DNA from: a virus
Reading direction: 5' to 3' (one strand)
DNA length: 64,000 nt
Virus record (IMG/VR): IMGVR_UViG_3300045971_000356
Span: 64,001 to 128,000 of that record
Shown: piece after piece, positions 3,358 through 63,785 of the stretch
How positions within the stretch are numbered: the first letter of the stretch is position 1
Layout of the letters: every line of letters begins with the position of its first letter
The notes under the pieces: generated by a model
Database searches by the model: none
Told to the model about the DNA's origin: nothing
Seen by the model: only the letters and a program-made list of their open reading frames with translations
Made by a program: the position numbers and the translations under genes

Positions 3358-3951
3358 ATGAAGATTAACGAAATTGAATTAGTTGGTGATCAAGATTTTC
3401 CGCTTGCAACAGCCGAACATTATTTGTCACTTGCTAGGCCAAACGGTACATTTGGTGATTTCGTTGTTTACTATGCTGAATTTGACGATGCTAGGGTAGT
3501 AATTTTTGTTGACGATAAAAAACAAGTAGCTGCATACGCTGGGTTCTACTCTAGGTTAAATGGAAAAGTTTGGATGGCTAGGCATGCGCAAACGTATGAC
3601 CCGCATAAAGGTAAAAATTTAATGGGGCAACTTTATAAATATGTCAAGGAAACGCTAAGAAAATCAATTCAAAGCGACATATTTCAGACTTATGCCGGTA
3701 AAAAAATGTGGACAGTAACGTTGCCAGCACTGGGATTAAAACCAATGATTTTTGACACTCAAACTGAACATATTATTGATCCTATAACATCCAGCATCAA
3801 CGTTTATCCGGGAGATAAAGATCCAGACGTTCATCGATATTGTTGGATATTAGAAAAATATGATCATTACCCGGATCAGAACATATTACGAGAGAATTCA
3901 ATATTGACACCATATACTGGAATATGGTATACTAACAACAAAGGAAAATAA
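3358..3951 (+). CDS. GNAT-like hypothetical protein with MKINEI N-terminal tag
   Basis: KGKNLMGQLY and QSD..QT..GKKMW resemble acetyltransferase motifs. Confidence 0.45.
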   Translation: MKINEIELVGDQDFPLATAEHYLSLARPNGTFGDFVVYYAEFDDARVVIFVDDKKQVAAYAGFYSRLNGKVWMARHAQTYDPHKGKNLMGQLYKYVKETLRKSIQSDIFQTYAGKKMWTVTLPALGLKPMIFDTQTEHIIDPITSSINVYPGDKDPDVHRYCWILEKYDHYPDQNILRENSILTPYTGIWYTNNKGK

Positions 3952-30994: not shown

Positions 30995-31207
30995 ATGAAT
31001 ATTTCTGATTTAATAATAAAAGAAGGTACTCCCGAGCATACAGCATACTTGCTATCTAGAAATGCTGATGAAGAAGCTGCGGCTTGGGCAAAAATGGAAG
31101 GCGAGTCTTTTTGGAACCCAGCTCGAATCAAATTGGTTAGACAAATGCGAAAAGCCAACAATAAAATCAATAAAATTAAGAAAAGATTATTTAAAGGTAT
31201 ACTATAA
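30995..31207 (+). CDS. Small basic protein with MNISDLIIKE tag
   Basis: ATAAATA 5 nt before the ATG. Confidence 0.5.
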   Translation: MNISDLIIKEGTPEHTAYLLSRNADEEAAAWAKMEGESFWNPARIKLVRQMRKANNKINKIKKRLFKGIL

Positions 31208-55340: not shown

Positions 55341-55381
55341 CATGATTATCTATATGTAAAGCGTTCACGATAAATAAGAAC

Positions 55382-57571
55382 ATGAGAGTAAAACACTTTA
55401 TCGCAGAACAGCAATTAGACGAGTTGGCAATGAACCCAACCTCCCTCCGCAGTGTCGCCGCAAAAATAGATGCCCGCGTTGGCATGGAGTTTGAAATGTA
55501 TGTGCCCGACACAAATGGCGGAGAAGGCGATAGTGATTACGATGAATGGGAACCAGATTACGAAATGGATGAGTCAGTGTCTGATTTTGCCGACATTATA
55601 GCATTCTTTAACAGCGGTGAATTTGCGGGCTCTTCTGGCCGTGCTTTAGGATTGTTTAAAGAGAAAATGGAGGAAGAATTTTTCGAATGGGTAGAAGAAC
55701 AAATACACGATAGTTGGCGCAAAGAAGGTCGTGATGCTATACGCGACTACATGGTAAACAACGATCTGTGGGACGAGGACGAGGCAATCACACTTGCGTT
55801 TGAGGAAATGGATCTCACAGACGACGAGAAAAATCGTGCTGAAAAAGTTGGAGCCCAGTTAAATGCCCGGAAATATAATCGCGTAAAAGGTGAAGTAAGT
55901 TATCGCGGTGATGATGAAAAAAATTGGGATGAAGCAGCCAAAAGAGCAGAAGATGCGTTTGAAGAACGGGTTGGTGAAGAGTGGCAAGGGGAAGGTGAAA
56001 TATCCGACGCTGCTTTTGAAGAATACCAAAGTGAGGAACGCGAGAACTATTCAGAGCAAGATTTTTTGCGTGACAAAGGAATAAGAACAGCACTTAACGC
56101 TTTTGAAGAATTTGAACCGCGTGATGTCAACTGGCCACACATGGTCAATGTTGGCGGTGGCGGAAATGGGTCGCAGAGCGCAGATGATGTGGCACGAGAT
56201 TTTGAAGAAATGATAGGTCGCCCAGTAATGTCAAGCGATAACTATCATGGAGTAAAGCGTAACGGTGTATCATACATTGTGGAGCCAGACTCAAGTTTAG
56301 ATGAGGCTAATAGCGGCGAGGATGCTGGGTTAGAGTTTGTATCCCCACCACTGCCTGTCAATGACATGCTGTCCGATTTAAAGAAAGTTAAAACATGGTG
56401 TGACGATAAGGGATGCTACACTAACAGCAGCACTGGGTTACATATAAACATTAGTGTGCCAGGGATGGATGAAGAAGGTAAGTTAGATTATGTGAAGTTA
56501 GCATTGCTCATGGGTGACAAGCATGTCATTGACCAGTTTGGTAGAGCAGGTAACACTTACGCAAAGTCCGCAATGGACATGATTAAAACTGCGGTTAGAA
56601 CTCGCCCTGAGTCCGCCGCAGCAATGCTTGACAAAATGAAGGGCGGACTTGACAAGTTAGCAAGTAAAATAATTCACACCGGTAAAACAGAAAAATACAC
56701 CAGCATCAACAACAAAGGAAACTACATAGAGTTTCGTAGTCCAGGCGATGACTGGCTTGGGAAATATTACAATCAGATTGAACCCACAGTGTTGCGTTTA
56801 GTTGTGGCGCTGGACGCAGCATGCGATCCAGAAAAATCTCGCCAAGAGTATCTTAAAAAGTTATACACTTTGCTAACACCATCGTCAAGCGCAGATCCAC
56901 TCGCATATTTCGCACAGTATGCGGCAGGGGAGATTCCTAAGGCTGCGTTACGCTCGTTCATCAAACAGGTTCAGTTGACACGAAAAACTAAGCGTGAAGA
57001 TGAAAAATTTGGCCCAGTGACAACTTGGACTGTCACTGACAATGTTTATGGGTATGTCAAGGGGGTCAAAGCACGGTCAGCAGCAGAGGCAATATCTGCT
57101 ACTAAACTTCTTTTAGGTGGAGATAGTGTGAATGCTCCGGATAGTCAGTTTACTGCGGTACAAAAAACACCGCAGCAAGCACCAGTGGACAATCTTGAAG
57201 GTAGGCCGTGGGCAAGATGGCGTATAAATGCTACTGCTGGCCGCACTATCCCAGTTTCTGCCAGGTCACATGCTGAGGCTATTCAACGGTGCGGTATACC
57301 AGAAGAACAAATAGTCAGTGTTGTCATTGACGATGGAAATTTAAGACCACCGCAGCAGGAACCTCAACGTAGAGAAGAGACCGACTTTGGCGAAGATGTT
57401 CCATGGGAAATATACGATAGAGCATCAGGTGAGCGAAGATTTGTATCGTTTATGTCACAAGCAAATAATGGTCAGTTGGCGGCAGCAAACGCAGTAGCAA
57501 TGTTAAACAACATAGCCACACCTGATGATCAGCGTCGTGGATTAGGTGTGCGTATGGTAGGTGGTGTGTAA
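55382..57571 (+). CDS. Putative amidoligase (COOH-NH2 ligase) with N-terminal tag and acidic insertion
   Basis: GMEFE, DSSL, LEFVSPPL, TNSSTGLHINIS, KY.SIN and IEFR. Confidence 0.8.
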   Translation: MRVKHFIAEQQLDELAMNPTSLRSVAAKIDARVGMEFEMYVPDTNGGEGDSDYDEWEPDYEMDESVSDFADIIAFFNSGEFAGSSGRALGLFKEKMEEEFFEWVEEQIHDSWRKEGRDAIRDYMVNNDLWDEDEAITLAFEEMDLTDDEKNRAEKVGAQLNARKYNRVKGEVSYRGDDEKNWDEAAKRAEDAFEERVGEEWQGEGEISDAAFEEYQSEERENYSEQDFLRDKGIRTALNAFEEFEPRDVNWPHMVNVGGGGNGSQSADDVARDFEEMIGRPVMSSDNYHGVKRNGVSYIVEPDSSLDEANSGEDAGLEFVSPPLPVNDMLSDLKKVKTWCDDKGCYTNSSTGLHINISVPGMDEEGKLDYVKLALLMGDKHVIDQFGRAGNTYAKSAMDMIKTAVRTRPESAAAMLDKMKGGLDKLASKIIHTGKTEKYTSINNKGNYIEFRSPGDDWLGKYYNQIEPTVLRLVVALDAACDPEKSRQEYLKKLYTLLTPSSSADPLAYFAQYAAGEIPKAALRSFIKQVQLTRKTKREDEKFGPVTTWTVTDNVYGYVKGVKARSAAEAISATKLLLGGDSVNAPDSQFTAVQKTPQQAPVDNLEGRPWARWRINATAGRTIPVSARSHAEAIQRCGIPEEQIVSVVIDDGNLRPPQQEPQRREETDFGEDVPWEIYDRASGERRFVSFMSQANNGQLAAANAVAMLNNIATPDDQRRGLGVRMVGGV

Positions 57572-58932
57572 TGTTTTTAACCGAATTTTTTAAAGATGAT
57601 GAGCGTGCTCAGATTGAAAGATTACGCGGCACTATTCCACTTGAAACCTGGTGTTCTATTCTCGAACATCACTTAGTCAATGACAGCATACCACTATTGG
57701 AATCACTTGATCAGAATTTAGTTGATAAAATTAGAAATACCCAATCGTTATCCGCAAGCGTGTCAGTGGGTGACGAATGTATAATTATGCCAATTATTAT
57801 TATCAATAATACGTTACAAATATATGACACTCAAGGAAATTACCCAGCAAAGTCTCAAGTGGAATTTAGTTTAGTAACAGCGAAAGACGGACAGGTTATA
57901 ACAGTTAAATTTAATGATGGCACAGTGTCAACCTTTCCAAATGAGAGATTGTCAAAGCTAACTTATATGACGGTGATTTTATCCAAAAGTAAACAAGACT
58001 ATAACAAATTGCTGACATGGGTAAAATCAATAAGCGATACTGATCTTCCGCCAGTGGCGACCTTGGCAGAATCAAAATTGATGGAATCTGCGACCGCAGA
58101 AATCTACCACTATGCTAACACGAGCCTTGCGGCAAAGATAATGCGTGACGGTATGTTCAAGTTGAGCAACACTACAGGCAACCAATCTGAAGAAAAATAC
58201 GCATTGCCTGGCTATCCATATTTTTTAAGCACTACTCGAAGTAAAGTGGGTGACTACCATCGCTATGCTGGCTCATCAGCCTGTATGTTTGTTCTTGATG
58301 GCAACTGGTTTAACCAGCATTATAAATCACGCCCAATAGATTACTGGGATCGCTCGTGGAACTATCCTGATTCCCCACGTACTCGTGAAAGTGAAGATCG
58401 TATTTACAGCAAGTCCCCGTCTATTCCGTTAAACGGCGTTAAAGCAGTTCATGTGTACATTCAAGAACAAAGCGAGTATAGAAGTCCAGAAGTTCGCGGT
58501 ATTTTAATCCAAGCTAAGAAGATGGGCATACAAGCTTATCTATACACTGATGAAACTGCGTGGAGATTACAAAATATTCGCCGTGCTGTAACACCAGGAC
58601 AAGCCGCAGCGGTGCTAAAAGGTCCACAACAGCCTGGTTATTCACGCCAACCGTATGACGCAGTTGAGCCATGGTTAGAACTAATCATGAAAAAGAACAA
58701 GGCAGAGTTGTCACCCAAGGCAGAGAAATTGCGTTATAATTTAGTGTACTATGGATCACGATACGAAAACGAGGACAGTGGATTGTCGAATGACATGGCA
58801 AACTCCCGCAAGCCAGACTCTGGCGGCTACGACATCGCAGTGAAGATAACGGACTACATGCGTAGAAATAGAATACCAGATTTGCTTACATTGAAAAACA
58901 TGCTGGTTAAAAAGTGGGATAACATCAAATGA
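57571..58932 (+). CDS. Two-domain tagged protein; second domain ADP-ribosyltransferase-like
   Basis: After LME|S: IYHY, FLSTTRS and ESEDR pattern. Confidence 0.5.
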   Translation: MFLTEFFKDDERAQIERLRGTIPLETWCSILEHHLVNDSIPLLESLDQNLVDKIRNTQSLSASVSVGDECIIMPIIIINNTLQIYDTQGNYPAKSQVEFSLVTAKDGQVITVKFNDGTVSTFPNERLSKLTYMTVILSKSKQDYNKLLTWVKSISDTDLPPVATLAESKLMESATAEIYHYANTSLAAKIMRDGMFKLSNTTGNQSEEKYALPGYPYFLSTTRSKVGDYHRYAGSSACMFVLDGNWFNQHYKSRPIDYWDRSWNYPDSPRTRESEDRIYSKSPSIPLNGVKAVHVYIQEQSEYRSPEVRGILIQAKKMGIQAYLYTDETAWRLQNIRRAVTPGQAAAVLKGPQQPGYSRQPYDAVEPWLELIMKKNKAELSPKAEKLRYNLVYYGSRYENEDSGLSNDMANSRKPDSGGYDIAVKITDYMRRNRIPDLLTLKNMLVKKWDNIK

Positions 58933-59085
58933 CTAATCAAAATAATACCCCAATTAAAAGACGAAGGTTATATAAAGAGCAATCTGAAAATTCTGTTCTA
59001 AAAAATAATGCTTCGATCGAAAATCAATTGTCGCAAACAGTTATAATAATGCGTCAAATGCATGCTCTTGTTACGAAGTTAGAAC

Positions 59086-59388
59086 ATGAAAATCAAAGAA
59101 ATACTAAGTGAGTCAGCGGATTGGATCCACAATTTTTGGCTACTTCATTCAGTGGACATTAAATCTTTCTTGGACGATACACAAAAATTATATCAATTGT
59201 ATAATGTATCATCGGAAAAAGATTTAATTAAATCTGAATTAGTGAGGACATATAGTTATTTAGATGAATTATTGCGAAATCCAAAATGGGAACACCTTGA
59301 AGAAGATCCAGATTATGACAAGATATATGATGGTTTACTTGATGTTTACGAAGGTATTCAATCTTTTTTACGAGCAAATAGTAAATGA
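59086..59388 (+). CDS. Tagged helical protein
   Basis: MKIKEILSES. Confidence 0.65.
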   Translation: MKIKEILSESADWIHNFWLLHSVDIKSFLDDTQKLYQLYNVSSEKDLIKSELVRTYSYLDELLRNPKWEHLEEDPDYDKIYDGLLDVYEGIQSFLRANSK

Positions 59389-59792
59389 AATCCACAGAGT
59401 TTATTGACGAGCATAGTAACTATGCTATCAACCCAGCATACACACCAGAGGTAATGCGTGAGCTAACTCTTATGTGCCGCGCGGCTGAAGGTTACTTTGA
59501 AAAGCATGGGTTCAAACTACACTTCACTGACCACTTTTTCGATCAGATGAAATTAAAGCGTGGCAATCGCGACATTTACACTACACAGGATTTAATGGCA
59601 ACGCTGGTGAAGATTTTACAACGCGGCATGCAGTTTTTCAAAGGCAAAGTGCCAGGCACAAATTTTGTTTTTTACGATCAGCACACTAATATTCACATCG
59701 CAATAAAGCGTGATAATGTAGATTTTTATGTTGCTACTACCACTGTTCGCGACTACAAATGGACTGGTGAAGGACAGGTGATAAGACTATGA
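59385..59792 (+). CDS. Tagged protein, possible BECR-type RNase fold
   Basis: MKSTEFIDE; FTDHFFDQ...ATTTVR. Confidence 0.5.
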   Translation: MKSTEFIDEHSNYAINPAYTPEVMRELTLMCRAAEGYFEKHGFKLHFTDHFFDQMKLKRGNRDIYTTQDLMATLVKILQRGMQFFKGKVPGTNFVFYDQHTNIHIAIKRDNVDFYVATTTVRDYKWTGEGQVIRL

Positions 59793-60097
59793 GAGCAAAA
59801 GAATTTATTACTGAGTCGGCTGAGACTATTGAAACGTATTTGGCACTTATGGGATTTTCATACACAAAGTTAGAGCAGCAGTCTTCTTTAGTAAAACAAT
59901 ATTATGATGCCCACAAAATAAGTCATGAAAAAATGAAGAGTTATCTAATAGATATCAATATAGCAATACACTCAGTCACTGACGACCCAAATGTATGGAA
60001 TAAATTCAGTGATGATCCGGAAGTTAGTGTTATATACAACAAGATAGCAACCTTGGCAAATAGCAACTATGAATATTTAGAGAGGAATACAGCATAA
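59789..60097 (+). CDS. Tagged helical protein, similar to 59086..59388
   Basis: MRAKEFITES; W....DP....IY shared with 59086. Confidence 0.65.
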   Translation: MRAKEFITESAETIETYLALMGFSYTKLEQQSSLVKQYYDAHKISHEKMKSYLIDINIAIHSVTDDPNVWNKFSDDPEVSVIYNKIATLANSNYEYLERNTA

Positions 60098-60690
60098 TGT
60101 TTAACAGAATACCACTGTGGAATGAGCGGCAAATTTTAATTAGCGAATCAACATATCTTGCTGATACCCATTGGGAAAAAAACCTTGCTTTGCGCGGAAA
60201 AAAAGTTGAGGTAATGCTTGAACAAATAAGTAGTGAATTAAACGAGGTAAACATAGACAACAGCAAGGGTGCTGGTGCTGTACCATACAATGCTGACGTT
60301 GATTACTTTGGTGTTCGTGTGTTGATGGAACCGTCTACATTTTTAGCGTTAGCAGCACCACTGACAGAGCCAGTGAGCAAAGAAGGGCTAATGAAGCATT
60401 TACAAAATGGCGGTTCCATTGGTGCTCCATTCCTTGATATCAATGTGCCGCCAGAGTGGGACGATGGCAACTTCAAGCAGTATGCTAAGATACGCGGGCA
60501 CGAAGGTCGCAACAGGATGATGGCAGTTATGGATCTTGAAGGCGATGCTCCTATTGAGGTGCATTTGTTTTTCAAGCAGTATCGCCGCCGCGAAGTAACA
60601 GATCAGATGATTGCTAAGGCCAATGAGGGTATGATTAGAGAACAAACGACCACATTGATACCTGGACCATTGTTTAAGGTAGTAGCATGA
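60097..60690 (+). CDS. ParB/Srx-like domain protein
   Basis: IGAPFL...GHEGRNRM. Confidence 0.6.
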   Translation: MFNRIPLWNERQILISESTYLADTHWEKNLALRGKKVEVMLEQISSELNEVNIDNSKGAGAVPYNADVDYFGVRVLMEPSTFLALAAPLTEPVSKEGLMKHLQNGGSIGAPFLDINVPPEWDDGNFKQYAKIRGHEGRNRMMAVMDLEGDAPIEVHLFFKQYRRREVTDQMIAKANEGMIREQTTTLIPGPLFKVVA

Positions 60691-61130
60691 GAGCAACTGA
60701 ATTCTTATCTGAAGGTATTATCAACTGGGTATCAAGAAAACTTGGTAGAGCGTGGGGCAAGCCCGGAGACGTAGTACATGGTAATGTGGTGGCAGACTAT
60801 TTAGAAAATTCAACGTACCATACAGAAAGCAAGCTAAAAAAAATTAGAAAAAGTAAATTTCAATTGACTAATTTAGATTTAGCGACAGCCGAGAAATACA
60901 GGCATTTTACTAACTCCCAAAATCACGGGTCCGTTATAGATATTGACAAATTAGATAATGCACGGCAGATGAAGATTACATATGACAGCTTGATTAAATA
61001 TCCCCCAGTGTTAGCACACGATGGATTTATTTGGGATGGCAATCATCGTCTTGAACGAGCAATAGAGTTGCAGTTACCCAGCATTCCTGTATTATTACAA
61101 GTTAGTATGGATAAAAGGAGTAGTATATGA
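60687..61130 (+). CDS. Tagged ParB/Srx-like domain protein
   Basis: MRATEFLSEG; PPVL...IWDGNHRL.RA. Confidence 0.7.
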   Translation: MRATEFLSEGIINWVSRKLGRAWGKPGDVVHGNVVADYLENSTYHTESKLKKIRKSKFQLTNLDLATAEKYRHFTNSQNHGSVIDIDKLDNARQMKITYDSLIKYPPVLAHDGFIWDGNHRLERAIELQLPSIPVLLQVSMDKRSSI

Positions 61131-61268
61131 ATGATCAACCAGAAAAATTACAATTCAATATTGACGGCTCAATTAAAGAAAATAGTCAACCCATTGATGC
61201 CGCACAAGAAAAAAAGTATTTAGACGATCTTGCAGTAGAGATAAATCAATGGTGTGAGGAAATCTTAA

Positions 61269-61748
61269 ATGCGAGCAACTGAATTTTTACTTGAAGCAAC
61301 CGGTGGGATCATGAACATTTTGCGCCGTGAGTTACCGGGCTGGCCTGATTATATTATCAAGGATATGGTCTACACTACTATCAATAATCAGAAAGATTTA
61401 GAAGAGAAGATAGAGCATGTACGGTGGTTAGCAACACAAATTTCATCTTGGAAATTCTATCCTAAAATGCCACTTACATTTGATATGCTAAGTCAAGACA
61501 CACAAAAGAAAATGAAAGTTGATCGTAACTTTGGATCTAAGAATCCGTTTGGAGTCGTTAACGATGAACAGCGAAGTGCTACTGCTGATACTATTGTTGG
61601 CAGTAAGGGGATGGAAAATTTGCCACCAGTGATAATGGTTAAAGAAGCAGACGGGCTCGACTTGTGGGAAGGTTGGCATAGAACCATGGCAGCATTTCGG
61701 TCTCACCCAGAAGGATTTAAAATAAATGCGTGGATAGGACAAAAATGA
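61269..61748 (+). CDS. Tagged ParB/Srx-like domain protein
   Basis: MRATEFLLEA; PPVI...LWEGWHRT.AA. Confidence 0.7.
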   Translation: MRATEFLLEATGGIMNILRRELPGWPDYIIKDMVYTTINNQKDLEEKIEHVRWLATQISSWKFYPKMPLTFDMLSQDTQKKMKVDRNFGSKNPFGVVNDEQRSATADTIVGSKGMENLPPVIMVKEADGLDLWEGWHRTMAAFRSHPEGFKINAWIGQK

Positions 61749-62398
61749 GAGCAAACGAATTTTTACTTGAAGGATTAAATCATCCAATGATTGTAGTGGA
61801 TGTACAGCCAGAGTACGCTTACTATACACCACAGACTGAAAAAATCTGTGCTGACATTATTCGCTTTGTCACTAAGCAAACTGGTCCAGTGTTGATGCTT
61901 GTCAATGCTGAGGATTCTGGCGTATCTGCAGACACAAAAGAGTTTATCACACAATATTGGAACAACATAGATGTTGAAGATTGGGACGACGAAGATCCGT
62001 CTGTCGTAACCAACAACGTTAACTGGTCGCGGTTTACCTTCATTGATAAGGGATATGGCCACCTTAGGTCCTGGATGGATCAAGGTGTTCCGCCCGCCGT
62101 TATAATTAAAGTGATACGAGCAATGTATCAAGAAAAAGTAAACGATAGCAGAGAATTATTTGGCGGCGAAGACTCTGATGAATATGAAGCAGGAATGCAA
62201 ACTCTTATGGGAAATTATGTCAGTCATGCCATAGGCGGTGATTGTATATCCGTTGGTTGGGCGTGTGTTGCTACATTGAAAAAATTTAGTGGTGCTTACT
62301 TAGTTGGTGGCGGAAGGAACGAGTGCTTACGAGAAGTTGAATTATTGATGAATGCGTTTAACATTAAATATAAGAGAATAGACTCATTAGTATACTAA
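61745..62398 (+). CDS. Tagged cysteine hydrolase (isochorismatase/nicotinamidase-like)
   Basis: MRANEFLLEG; IVVDVQPEY, DKGYG and GGGRNECL. Confidence 0.6.
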   Translation: MRANEFLLEGLNHPMIVVDVQPEYAYYTPQTEKICADIIRFVTKQTGPVLMLVNAEDSGVSADTKEFITQYWNNIDVEDWDDEDPSVVTNNVNWSRFTFIDKGYGHLRSWMDQGVPPAVIIKVIRAMYQEKVNDSRELFGGEDSDEYEAGMQTLMGNYVSHAIGGDCISVGWACVATLKKFSGAYLVGGGRNECLREVELLMNAFNIKYKRIDSLVY

Positions 62399-62399
62399 T

Positions 62400-63518
62400 A
62401 TGAAAATAAACGAAATATTACGAGAATTAGCCTACCCAGGCAACATTGGGATTATGGAACTAACTAAGTTCTTTCAGATGGCCACTGATGAGCAAAAAAT
62501 GCATTTTAAGAAATTAAAAGCATCAGGCAAAACAGAAGCAGCATGGAAATTTATGCAGTCTGTCGTTGATGTTAAGCTGCATGAAGGTGGCTGGGCTAAC
62601 CCAGTTACACAAGGAACGCATATTACACCACAGTTAGTTGACATGGTGTTTAAAGTATTGAACATTTTCGTTAAACGATTAAATGTATTTCTACAAAGCA
62701 AGGAAATTCCGCCAGTTGAGTTAGGTAATCCTTGCGGTAGCACAACGTATTATAAACGTGATTTAATGCAAAACCCCACCCGTGAATACGGTGACATAGA
62801 TGTCAACTTGTTCATCCCACGCATTGAGGGAACAACAAATAATGCTAACGCTGATATTATCCGCACTGCGGTTCAAGAGTTTTGCGAAGGTGACCCAGAT
62901 TTCCAAACAAGTAACGGAACAAACGTTATCGTTAGGGTTGGAAAAGACTATATACAAGTTGATTTAATAACGGCGTTTTACCACAACAAAGAATGGACTA
63001 ATGCATTAGCACCTGAATACAATGTCAAAGGTGTGTTATGCAACAGCATTTACTCATCACTTGGCGAAGCGTTAAGCCTTAGCATTGGTGGTGGACATGG
63101 TGTTCAAGGTAAGTTTGATAGCGAAGGAAACTTAGTGCCGTTCAAAACAGTTAAAGGAGTTACTCTTAAAACGATCACAAACAAACCAGACTCGTGGGCG
63201 TTAGACATTGCTAAGTTCTTTGGATGTAAGAAAATACACCCATTGCTTAAACAATATCCAGGCAAGTTAGACGAAGTGAGAGTTGCTGACATGATAAACA
63301 GTATTAAGGGAATTGCACTATCCATGGAGTTAAATGGAGTTGGTAACTCGTCAGAGTTACTGCAAAAAATCAAATCAATATACTTGGGCAAAATAGAGAA
63401 GGCTGCAACGAGCAGCAAGTATGACAAAGCAGCAACGCCCGAAGCAAAAGCAAAAGCAGATCACACTAAAGAAATGTTGATACAAAAGTCAACTGAATTT
63501 GCCAAAATGTTTGATTAA
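62400..63518 (+). CDS. Tagged Pol-beta-superfamily nucleotidyltransferase
   Basis: MKINEILRE; GS...GDIDV...QVDL. Confidence 0.65.
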   Translation: MKINEILRELAYPGNIGIMELTKFFQMATDEQKMHFKKLKASGKTEAAWKFMQSVVDVKLHEGGWANPVTQGTHITPQLVDMVFKVLNIFVKRLNVFLQSKEIPPVELGNPCGSTTYYKRDLMQNPTREYGDIDVNLFIPRIEGTTNNANADIIRTAVQEFCEGDPDFQTSNGTNVIVRVGKDYIQVDLITAFYHNKEWTNALAPEYNVKGVLCNSIYSSLGEALSLSIGGGHGVQGKFDSEGNLVPFKTVKGVTLKTITNKPDSWALDIAKFFGCKKIHPLLKQYPGKLDEVRVADMINSIKGIALSMELNGVGNSSELLQKIKSIYLGKIEKAATSSKYDKAATPEAKAKADHTKEMLIQKSTEFAKMFD

Positions 63519-63544: not shown

Positions 63545-63573
63545 TTGACTTTTGGCTCAAACGGCTATACAAT
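63545..63573 (+). promoter_or_regulatory. Early promoter, ATG 6 nt downstream
   Basis: TTGACT-17-TACAAT. Confidence 0.7.
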
Positions 63574-63579
63574 AGCCGT

Positions 63580-63732
63580 ATGAAGCAATTAATGTACGTT
63601 TACACTTCCACCCGCAAGAATCTGTGTGGTGAACTTACACCAATCGTGATTGAAACCAATCTCACGTATGCTTTGCCTTATTGGCAGGCACGAAAACGCA
63701 GTAATCCCAAAATATTTTGGAAAATTGCTTGA
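63580..63732 (+). CDS. Small hypothetical protein
   Basis: Manual translation MKQLMYVY...IFWKIA*. Confidence 0.5.
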   Translation: MKQLMYVYTSTRKNLCGELTPIVIETNLTYALPYWQARKRSNPKIFWKIA

Positions 63733-63785
63733 CTTTATTGCCTTTTGGCTGTATAATACTCACATACACAAGCAAAGGAAGTAAA

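Follow-up and report, generated by a model that had tools for sequence, protein, structure and literature searches.

The internal proteins of T-even phages are diverse defence proteins whose sole common feature is a capsid targeting sequence (CTS; PMC3012670), and the CTS is possibly a general loading route for varied proteins in T4-like phages (PMC9026906). Mutagenesis of the T4 CTS has assigned residues 4 and 7 to targeting and residues 8 and 10 to processing, an Asp at position 10 stopping cleavage but not loading (PMC9026906). Here we describe a leader of nine residues, M-[KR]-x-x-E-[FI]-[IL]-x-E, hereafter called the tag, which opens many of the proteins encoded in a gene array at positions 55382-63518 of a viral DNA of 64,000 nucleotides (the window: bases 64001-128000 of IMG/VR record IMGVR_UViG_3300045971_000356, a contig of 166,302 bp which CheckV rates as 47% complete). 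We think it likely that the tag is the T4 CTS equivalent of the clade to which this phage belongs, and that the proteins bearing it, its cargo, would be packaged into the head and cleaved. Since CTS loading of varied proteins has already been published (PMC3012670, PMC9026906), this reading extends a known concept, and with the CTS established in T4 the surprise is limited. What the comparison of genes supports is that a distant clade of jumbo phages has its own variant of this T4 system, with an enlarged, enzyme-rich cargo.

Like the CTS of the T4 internal proteins, the tag is a short N-terminal propeptide-like segment common to unrelated proteins; the core E-F-I-x-E is identical in the two, and so is the end, [LI]-x-E, which by sequence is the consensus of the T4 head protease gp21 with its Glu. 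When both are aligned on E-F-I-x-E, residues 7, 8 and 10 of the CTS fall on tag positions 6, 7 and 9. A search of the T4 genome with the tag pattern, in which a gap of 6-9 nt was permitted so that 10 residues were allowed, found in-frame starts at exactly ipI (MKTFKEFIKE), ipII and ipIII (MKTYQEFIAE). A fourth match, MHRRRYSERK, was rejected as a tag because its 8-nt gap puts the last three codons of the motif out of frame. The clade that bears the tag also shares with T4 a protease of the gp21 family and a gp22-like scaffold. It differs in that its members are RaK2/PA5oct-type jumbo phages, distant from T4, that tags number 5-11 in its complete genomes and no fewer than 10 in the present half-genome as against three in T4, and that its cargo consists mostly of enzymes of 100-730 amino acids rather than of small basic proteins.

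Three further systems invite comparison. T4 Alt is a head-packaged ADP-ribosyltransferase (ART) that is cut at ITE-6 and LTE-619 (PMC5694885). The second gene of the array, open reading frame (ORF) 57571, resembles it in its predicted ART fold, in a leader of five residues ending in L-T-E and in an internal L-M-E site, but is nearest to DarT and Tpt1 with their H-type NAD pocket and not to the R-S-E family of Alt and VIP2, and no sequence similarity to Alt was found. Polyvalent and MuF-fused proteins (Iyer et al. 2017, PMC5512222; PMC9503650) are likewise predicted to be effectors that accompany the DNA and contain the same domains, namely ART, Pol-beta nucleotidyltransferase, ParB/Srx, GNAT, kinase, NUDIX and lysozyme, so that by predicted domains the cargo repertoire essentially mirrors these virion-delivered effectors. 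Their architecture is that of a giant chain or of a fusion to MuF or portal, whereas the proteins described here are mostly separate, small and tagged, with a few tag-separated fusions. Finally, in phages of the phiKZ type (SPN3US, phiKZ) a gp21-related protease removes the N-terminal propeptides of many inner-body proteins by cutting behind a Glu (PMC5694885, PMC7411985), and paralogues among these proteins have identical propeptide starts in common. The protease of these phages differs, however, in belonging to family S80 and cutting at [A/S/G]-x-E, the propeptides are longer and more varied, the lineage is another one, and a common 9-mer tag has not been reported for them. In the literature we found no paper on this tag or on large enzyme arrays that bear it.

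The tag in the window and in related genomes

The first-pass annotation, which was made from the DNA letters alone, had listed nine array proteins that begin alike, and all nine N-termini are present (Table 1). With a strict form of the motif, M-x3-[ED]-[FIL]-[ILF]-x-E, the tag is found at 10 of the 305 ORF starts of the 166-kb contig, seven of them in the array and three upstream of the window. Inside proteins this motif does not occur in 52,602 residues when the Met is included, and occurs 14 times when the Met is dropped. Two array tags are degenerate, that of ORF 55382 having His at position 5 and ORF 57571 having the shorter leader MFLTE. The annotation had also named scattered variants elsewhere in the window. 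Those at 3358, 19715 and 30928(-) were rejected as members of the tag family, for they lack Glu at position 9 and have no BLAST similarity to tagged families; the remaining one, at 30995(+), is present as a 69-aa ORF with the 10-residue start MNISDLIIKE.

Table 1. Coordinates of the array genes, of neighbouring features and of tag-related features in relatives (window positions unless a locus or the genome is given)
Feature	Position	Strand	N-terminus	Remarks
ORF upstream of array, 243 aa	54565-55296			directly upstream
ATAAATA, putative promoter, T4-late-promoter-like	55370..55376	+		ends 5 nt before first array ATG; sequence read directly
Amidoligase, predicted, 729 aa	55382..57571	+	MRVKHFIAE	degenerate tag, then family-conserved L-x-E-L-x-M
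DarT-like ART, predicted, 453 aa	57571..58932	+	MFLTEFF	MFLTE leader, 165-aa N-terminal insert, ART domain 165-453
Untagged ORF, putative gene, 60 aa	58929..59111	+		overlaps both neighbours; from ORF list only
Tagged protein, 100 aa	59086..59388	+	MKIKEILSE	23% identity, E 0.008 (BLAST) to ORF 59789
Tagged protein, 135 aa	59385..59792	+	MKSTEFIDE	weak BLAST match to tagged L005_9597
Tagged protein, 102 aa	59789..60097	+	MRAKEFITE
Untagged protein, 197 aa	60097..60690	+		GHEGRNR at residue 134
Tagged protein, candidate ParB/Srx-like, 147 aa	60687..61130	+	MRATEFLSE	DGNHR at residue 117
Untagged ORF, 51 aa	61127..61282	+		between two ParB-like genes; from ORF list only
Tagged protein, 159 aa	61269..61748	+	MRATEFLLE	EGWHR at residue 134 aligns with DGNHR of ORF 60687
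Tagged protein, 217 aa	61745..62398	+	MRANEFLLE	tagged homologues in L002, L005, L015
Nucleotidyltransferase, predicted, 372 aa	62400..63518	+	MKINEILRE	53-aa helical insert, Pol-beta-superfamily domain
Putative sigma-70-like promoters	63545-63573; 63729-63757			10 and 11 of 12 matches
Strict tags upstream of window	genome positions 48244, 55257, 60504
Fusion proteins, 331-334 aa	L009:6788-7780; L013:13358-14350; L014:12963-13964			internal tag-like joints
Small protein of G002	L076:242-466			between portal and scaffold genes
Region of G004 with tagged gene, 112 aa	L264; 245523-246102			in head operon
Tagged kinase-like paralogues of G001	L263; 174187-177976		MRINEIINE, MRITEIITE, MRINELLNE	downstream of capsid gene
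PA5oct EST35_0150 (gp150), 73 aa	L105:4072-4293		MKINDIITE	between portal and scaffold genes
PA5oct EST35_0271	L119:3882-4268		MKIKEIILE	divergent from ClpP gene

No near relative of the window was found among GenBank phages, and neither a near-identity DNA search with the array nor tblastn with the nucleotidyltransferase gave a match there. Searches of IMG/VR with single proteins (the nucleotidyltransferase and rIIA) gave none either, and relatives were then retrieved by an alignment-based search. Of the 1750 ORFs in the 74 related loci, 112 bear the tag, with F or I at position 6 in 100 of the 112, I or L at position 7 in 105 and Glu at position 9 in 110. Together with those of the window's own contig and of a complete relative, G002, there are 136 tagged proteins, which fall into 35 BLAST clusters; judged by sequence similarity, then, the tag is borne by at least 35 unrelated cargo families. 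In more than 100 metagenomic homologues of two of the cargo proteins it stands directly before the conserved core.

The tag can also be found independently of any cargo. When IMG/VR was scanned for the DNA pattern of M-R-A-x-E-F-[ILF..]-x-E, at least 80 loci matched, and 90 of the 92 matches listed mark the beginning of an ORF of 50 aa or more, typically preceded within a few codons by a stop. In G002 there are 11 tags at protein starts and none inside proteins, and in five other genomes of 91-100% completeness the count is 5-11 each, as compared to 0-1 for a reversed-pattern control. The earlier proposal that the tag is a modular packaging signal is supported to the extent that sequence allows: all the computational tests that might have contradicted a capsid-targeting role favoured it, and the tag is modular, the cores of the nucleotidyltransferase and ART families starting after Glu9. 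Packaging, cleavage and injection would be its consequences if the likeness to the CTS extends to function.

Head genes, head protease and the case for packaging

In its gene order the window contig follows G002 over 83 colinear ORFs, the syntenic tagged array included. The major capsid protein (MCP) of G002 in turn shows 62-67% identity with its counterparts in PA5oct, 121Q/PBECO4, Vibrio phage 2.275.O and Phosso, and the window phage is thereby assigned to the jumbo clade of the RaK2/PA5oct type, whose head core is T4-like. A gp21-like protease, which the proposed cleavage implies, was detected in all ten long tag-bearing contigs tested and not in the window's own: Peptidase_S77 (PF03420) is present in five of five long contigs found via the nucleotidyltransferase (285-333 kb, one of them complete with terminal repeats) and in five of five found via the tag alone (191-525 kb), and the Gp23 capsid family is present in all three of the former that were searched for it. 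Within the G002 genome the density of [LI]-x-E sites peaks in the gp22-like scaffold (4.66 versus 1.02 per 100 aa), which also contains tag-like repeats such as LAEEINEL and LAEEIKEF.

Tagged genes lie close to, or within, the head gene clusters of these phages. In G002 a tagged gene of 128 aa adjoins the terminase gene, in G004 a tagged gene stands between those of a small core protein and an acidic scaffold, and in G001 three tagged kinase-like paralogues lie downstream of the MCP gene, with a gene for an HNH homing endonuclease intervening. The tagged PA5oct protein EST35_0150 carries the GenBank label 'structural protein, ESI-MS/MS', which marks it as detected in virions (PMC7318152). The small core protein has a leader of its own. 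In 116 of 120 listed metagenomic homologues it starts with M-x-[LI]-[LIT]-E-[MIV]-F, typically as MNLLEMF, which matches the MFLTEFF of ORF 57571, and this second, shorter leader would probably be equivalent to the tag in the way of ITE-6 of T4 Alt. A further PA5oct protein, EST35_0271, is annotated from a start five codons before a perfect tag, and its true start is therefore probably the tag Met.

Taken together, these observations would fit the following course of events. The array would be expressed as one unit late in infection, and the leader would bind the scaffolding core while the prohead assembles, which would enclose the cargo. The activated head protease would then cut after Glu9, and also at [LI]-x-E joints such as KLME in ORF 57571, which would leave mature enzymes free within the capsid. 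In the next infection the cargo would exit with the DNA, as do IPI and Alt of T4, and act on host DNA, RNA, proteins or defence signals before phage genes are expressed.

Several points weigh against this reading. Packaging, cleavage after Glu9 and injection are steps that we infer for a phage known from its genes alone, and the late timing comes from a motif of 7 nt. The T4 CTS has 10 residues and the tag has nine, and three array members, ORFs 55382, 57571 and 60097, do not have the full tag. A gp21-type protease and a gp23-type capsid gene were searched for in the window's own 166-kb contig and are absent, as are a head protease and an MCP from the closest fragmentary relatives; such absences are to be expected of fragments, the contig representing about half a genome, but the link between tag and protease consequently rests on the relatives. 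The mass-spectrometry list of PA5oct also holds clearly non-structural proteins, which makes the label of EST35_0150 soft evidence, and this protein, the tagged one with proteomic support, belongs to the head core and is not an enzyme. Moreover, the cultured RaK2-like relatives have only 0-3 tags each where many would be expected. The phAPEC6 paper contains no cleavage data.

Could the tag be a signal that is read outside the capsid? It might mark proteins for processing, latency or degradation, with a protease, be it the head protease at work in the cytoplasm or a ClpP- or FtsH-type system of the phage, activating or destroying at a set time potentially toxic enzymes that are never packaged. 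The tag does end in a protease site, many of the cargo proteins are toxin-like enzymes (ART, ParB-like), and the tagged EST35_0271 lies beside a ClpP gene. We nevertheless consider this explanation improbable, since the near-invariant positions of the tag include those that correspond to targeting residues of T4 and are not cleavage residues alone (PMC9026906), tagged genes are found within head operons, and the activity of T4 gp21 is restricted to the assembled prohead (PMC9958956).

The predicted cargo

Sequence searches against Pfam, PHROGs and the PDB left eight of 10 array proteins without a reliable match, the two exceptions being ORFs 55382 and 60687. The nucleotidyltransferase called in the first-pass annotation, ORF 62400, is supported by its modelled fold, which most resembles the palm and thumb of family X polymerases. 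The AF2 model (pLDDT 89.9, with tag residues 1-13 disordered) is matched by Foldseek to Pol beta and lambda, TUT7, CdnE and OAS with a probability of up to 1.0, and has VIA Z values of 9.7-8.5 to Pol beta, ASFV Pol X, Pol mu and TdT over ~170-185 residues; a Pfam sequence match was not obtained. The motifs GS at 113 and DID at 132-134 are present, and G113, S114, D132 and D134 are invariant among homologues. There are 146 metagenomic homologues, and nearly all of the 119 listed start with MRAKEFIxE or MKINEIIxE. Their core, GGWA..TQ.T.ITP, mostly begins at residue 10; the window protein has an insert in between.

The ART-like call for ORF 57571 is likewise upheld by the predicted fold and by the invariant His, S-T-T and E-x-E, and residues 165-453 are predicted to form a member of the ADP-ribosyltransferase superfamily. 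For this region (AF2 pLDDT 88.3) Foldseek ranks DarT (E 3e-5, probability 1.0) and Tpt1 first among PDB structures, with ARTs of the cholera-toxin type scoring far more weakly. DarT enzymes modify DNA. The protein has the motifs YHY at 179, STT at 220 and ESED at 273, and H16, S56/T57/T58 and E109/E111 are invariant in 43 homologues. The C-terminal domain has 327 homologues, and in 88 of the 120 listed the strict tag stands directly before the core AAT..VYHY; others of those listed have an 8-residue form of the tag, for example MRLQELLE. In ORF 57571 itself the internal KLME (residues 169-172) directly precedes this core, behind the insert. Some homologues (P0123, P0240) are fused to a GH19 lysozyme-type domain, PF00182.

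ORF 55382 had been called an amidoligase, and Pfam agrees, with a match to Amidoligase_2 (PF12224) of 25 bits against a cut-off of 22 (E 2e-5); a tagged relative matches the same family with E 2.7e-11. A homologue in locus L005 has the full tag MRAKEFFFE, and one in Atu_ph07 is encoded one gene away from the portal gene.

The three ParB/Srx calls, for ORFs 60687, 61269 and 60097, stand less firmly and are best regarded as leads from sequence motifs. The motifs are present in each and none has a Pfam match; for ORF 60687 the ESM Atlas points to ParB_N clusters (with a feature score of 0.89 and, by the matched row, a structure TM of 0.69), while the assignments of ORFs 61269 and 60097 follow from the motif alone. 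ORF 60687 also lacks a match among PDB sequences and has a weak match to a PHROG of unknown function (E 0.0055). Homologues of the untagged ORF 60097 in loci L005, L006 and L007 start with MRANEFINE or MRAQEFINE. In three loci the 331-334-aa fusion proteins consist of a ParB-like module and two further modules, which elsewhere occur as a separate tagged protein of 160 aa starting with MRAREFITE and then SLDPE. The joints of the fusions read KELTE followed by SLDPE and DMRANEFISE followed by DEG, and the whole resembles a polyprotein whose modules would be separated by the head protease.

Among the smaller tagged proteins, ORF 59086 appears to be a weak paralogue of ORF 59789 and has no Pfam or PHROG match, ORF 59385, a candidate RNase, has no Pfam match, and ORF 61745, a candidate cysteine hydrolase of the isochorismatase type, has neither a Pfam match nor a reliable match to a PDB sequence; a PDB sequence match of the last to triosephosphate isomerase (E 0.0013 over 58 residues) was taken as chance and rejected. 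Across 88 tagged proteins of the window and its relatives Pfam identifies GNAT, for which the first-pass annotation had proposed a candidate in the array, in four, all of them relatives, GH19 lysozyme in three and Amidoligase_2 in two, with further matches to NUDIX, Polbeta, NTP_transf_2, Kinase-PolyVal and LysM.

But would such proteins act in the next host at all? Whether most of the cargo consists of injected counter-defence or takeover effectors is a matter on which we see the scales about level. The tagged proteins might instead be packaged and yet serve as structural, DNA-condensing or assembly helpers, with enzyme domains that act inside the head or never, a view that gains from the commonest tagged families being ~125-aa proteins from structural modules, from the sole proteomic case being a head-core protein, and from the functions of T4 IPII and IPIII still being unknown (PMC9026906). 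We hold it to be unlikely, because the catalytic motifs (H..STT..ExE of the ART, GS..DxD of the nucleotidyltransferase) are intact across hundreds of homologues, because their substrates, NAD, NTPs and host macromolecules, are absent from the capsid, and because T4 Alt and IPI provide a precedent for ejection.

If cargo of this kind is delivered, what would be gained? The cargo of giant phages beyond their DNA is little known, as most of them are uncultured and virion proteomics exists for a handful. As a capsid address the tag would resemble a signal peptide for the virion, from which packaged proteins could be predicted across many environmental jumbo phages. We are evenly torn on the stronger claim that this nine-residue label marks the whole head-loaded set, tag-separated polyproteins included, in the large and mostly uncultured RaK2/PA5oct-type clade; were it true, genome sequences could directly reveal the 'first-strike' proteome that thousands of phages inject, with dozens of effector families not yet described, the DarT-like ARTs and Pol X-like nucleotidyltransferases among them. 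If the tag is a capsid address, the result would be a catalogue of pre-made effectors to set against bacterial defence systems, the candidates being DNA- or RNA-directed ARTs, nucleotidyltransferases, ParB-like nucleases, kinases, acetyltransferases, NUDIX hydrolases and amidoligases. A second, naturally diverged CTS for protein-delivery engineering beyond T4 would be gained as well.

Coding of the tag and layout of the array

At every position the codons of the tag vary synonymously (AGA/CGA, GAA/GAG, TTT/TTC, ATT/ATA/ATC, ATG/GTG), which indicates selection on the peptide and not on the RNA. We consider it very improbable that the 5' end of these genes is a recombination handle for swapping gene cassettes or a translation-initiation cassette for genes with weak ribosome-binding sites, which acts as nucleic acid and has no role in the protein. 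In favour of this view, a Shine-Dalgarno-like sequence is found within 16 nt in only 29 of 79 distinct tagged genes, the adjacent tags of ORFs 60687, 61269 and 61745 are almost identical in DNA, and T-even internal-protein genes shuffle at conserved leaders (as cited in PMC3012670). Against it, synonymous sites are free while residues are kept, and the tag persists in distant phages whose flanking sequences are unrelated as well as at the joints of fusion proteins. A role as a handle and a role as a signal can moreover coexist.

In addition to the array, the window contains rIIA, rIIB, NrdA, genes of NAD salvage and many homing endonucleases. Over the array itself 13 plus-strand ORFs run end to end, often with overlapping stop and start codons. 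The ATAAATA that the first-pass annotation had noted just upstream of ORF 55382 is indeed there, and this motif and the tight gene spacing are the sole grounds on which the array is taken as a putative late operon. Across the contig ATAAATA is strand-biased, with 62 occurrences on the plus and 23 on the minus strand, and frequently lies 1-30 nt before start codons, the distance often being just 1-8 nt. Should it serve as the late promoter, a large number of late transcripts would have little or no leader. A promoter consensus for comparison is not given in the PA5oct paper.

The two short untagged ORFs of the array, at 58929 and 61127, are possibly partners or inhibitors of the adjacent enzymes, or non-genes; a BLAST search with the former found no homologue. 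The ORF directly upstream of the array has a sole, weak match to phrog_36222, a family of unknown function (E 3e-6), and its N-terminus, GELRISDG, resembles by eye those of virion fibre or structural proteins. Should it be structural, the array would adjoin a late structural gene. Right after the tagged array two strong sigma-70-like promoters follow, which suggests a change of transcription class at this point.

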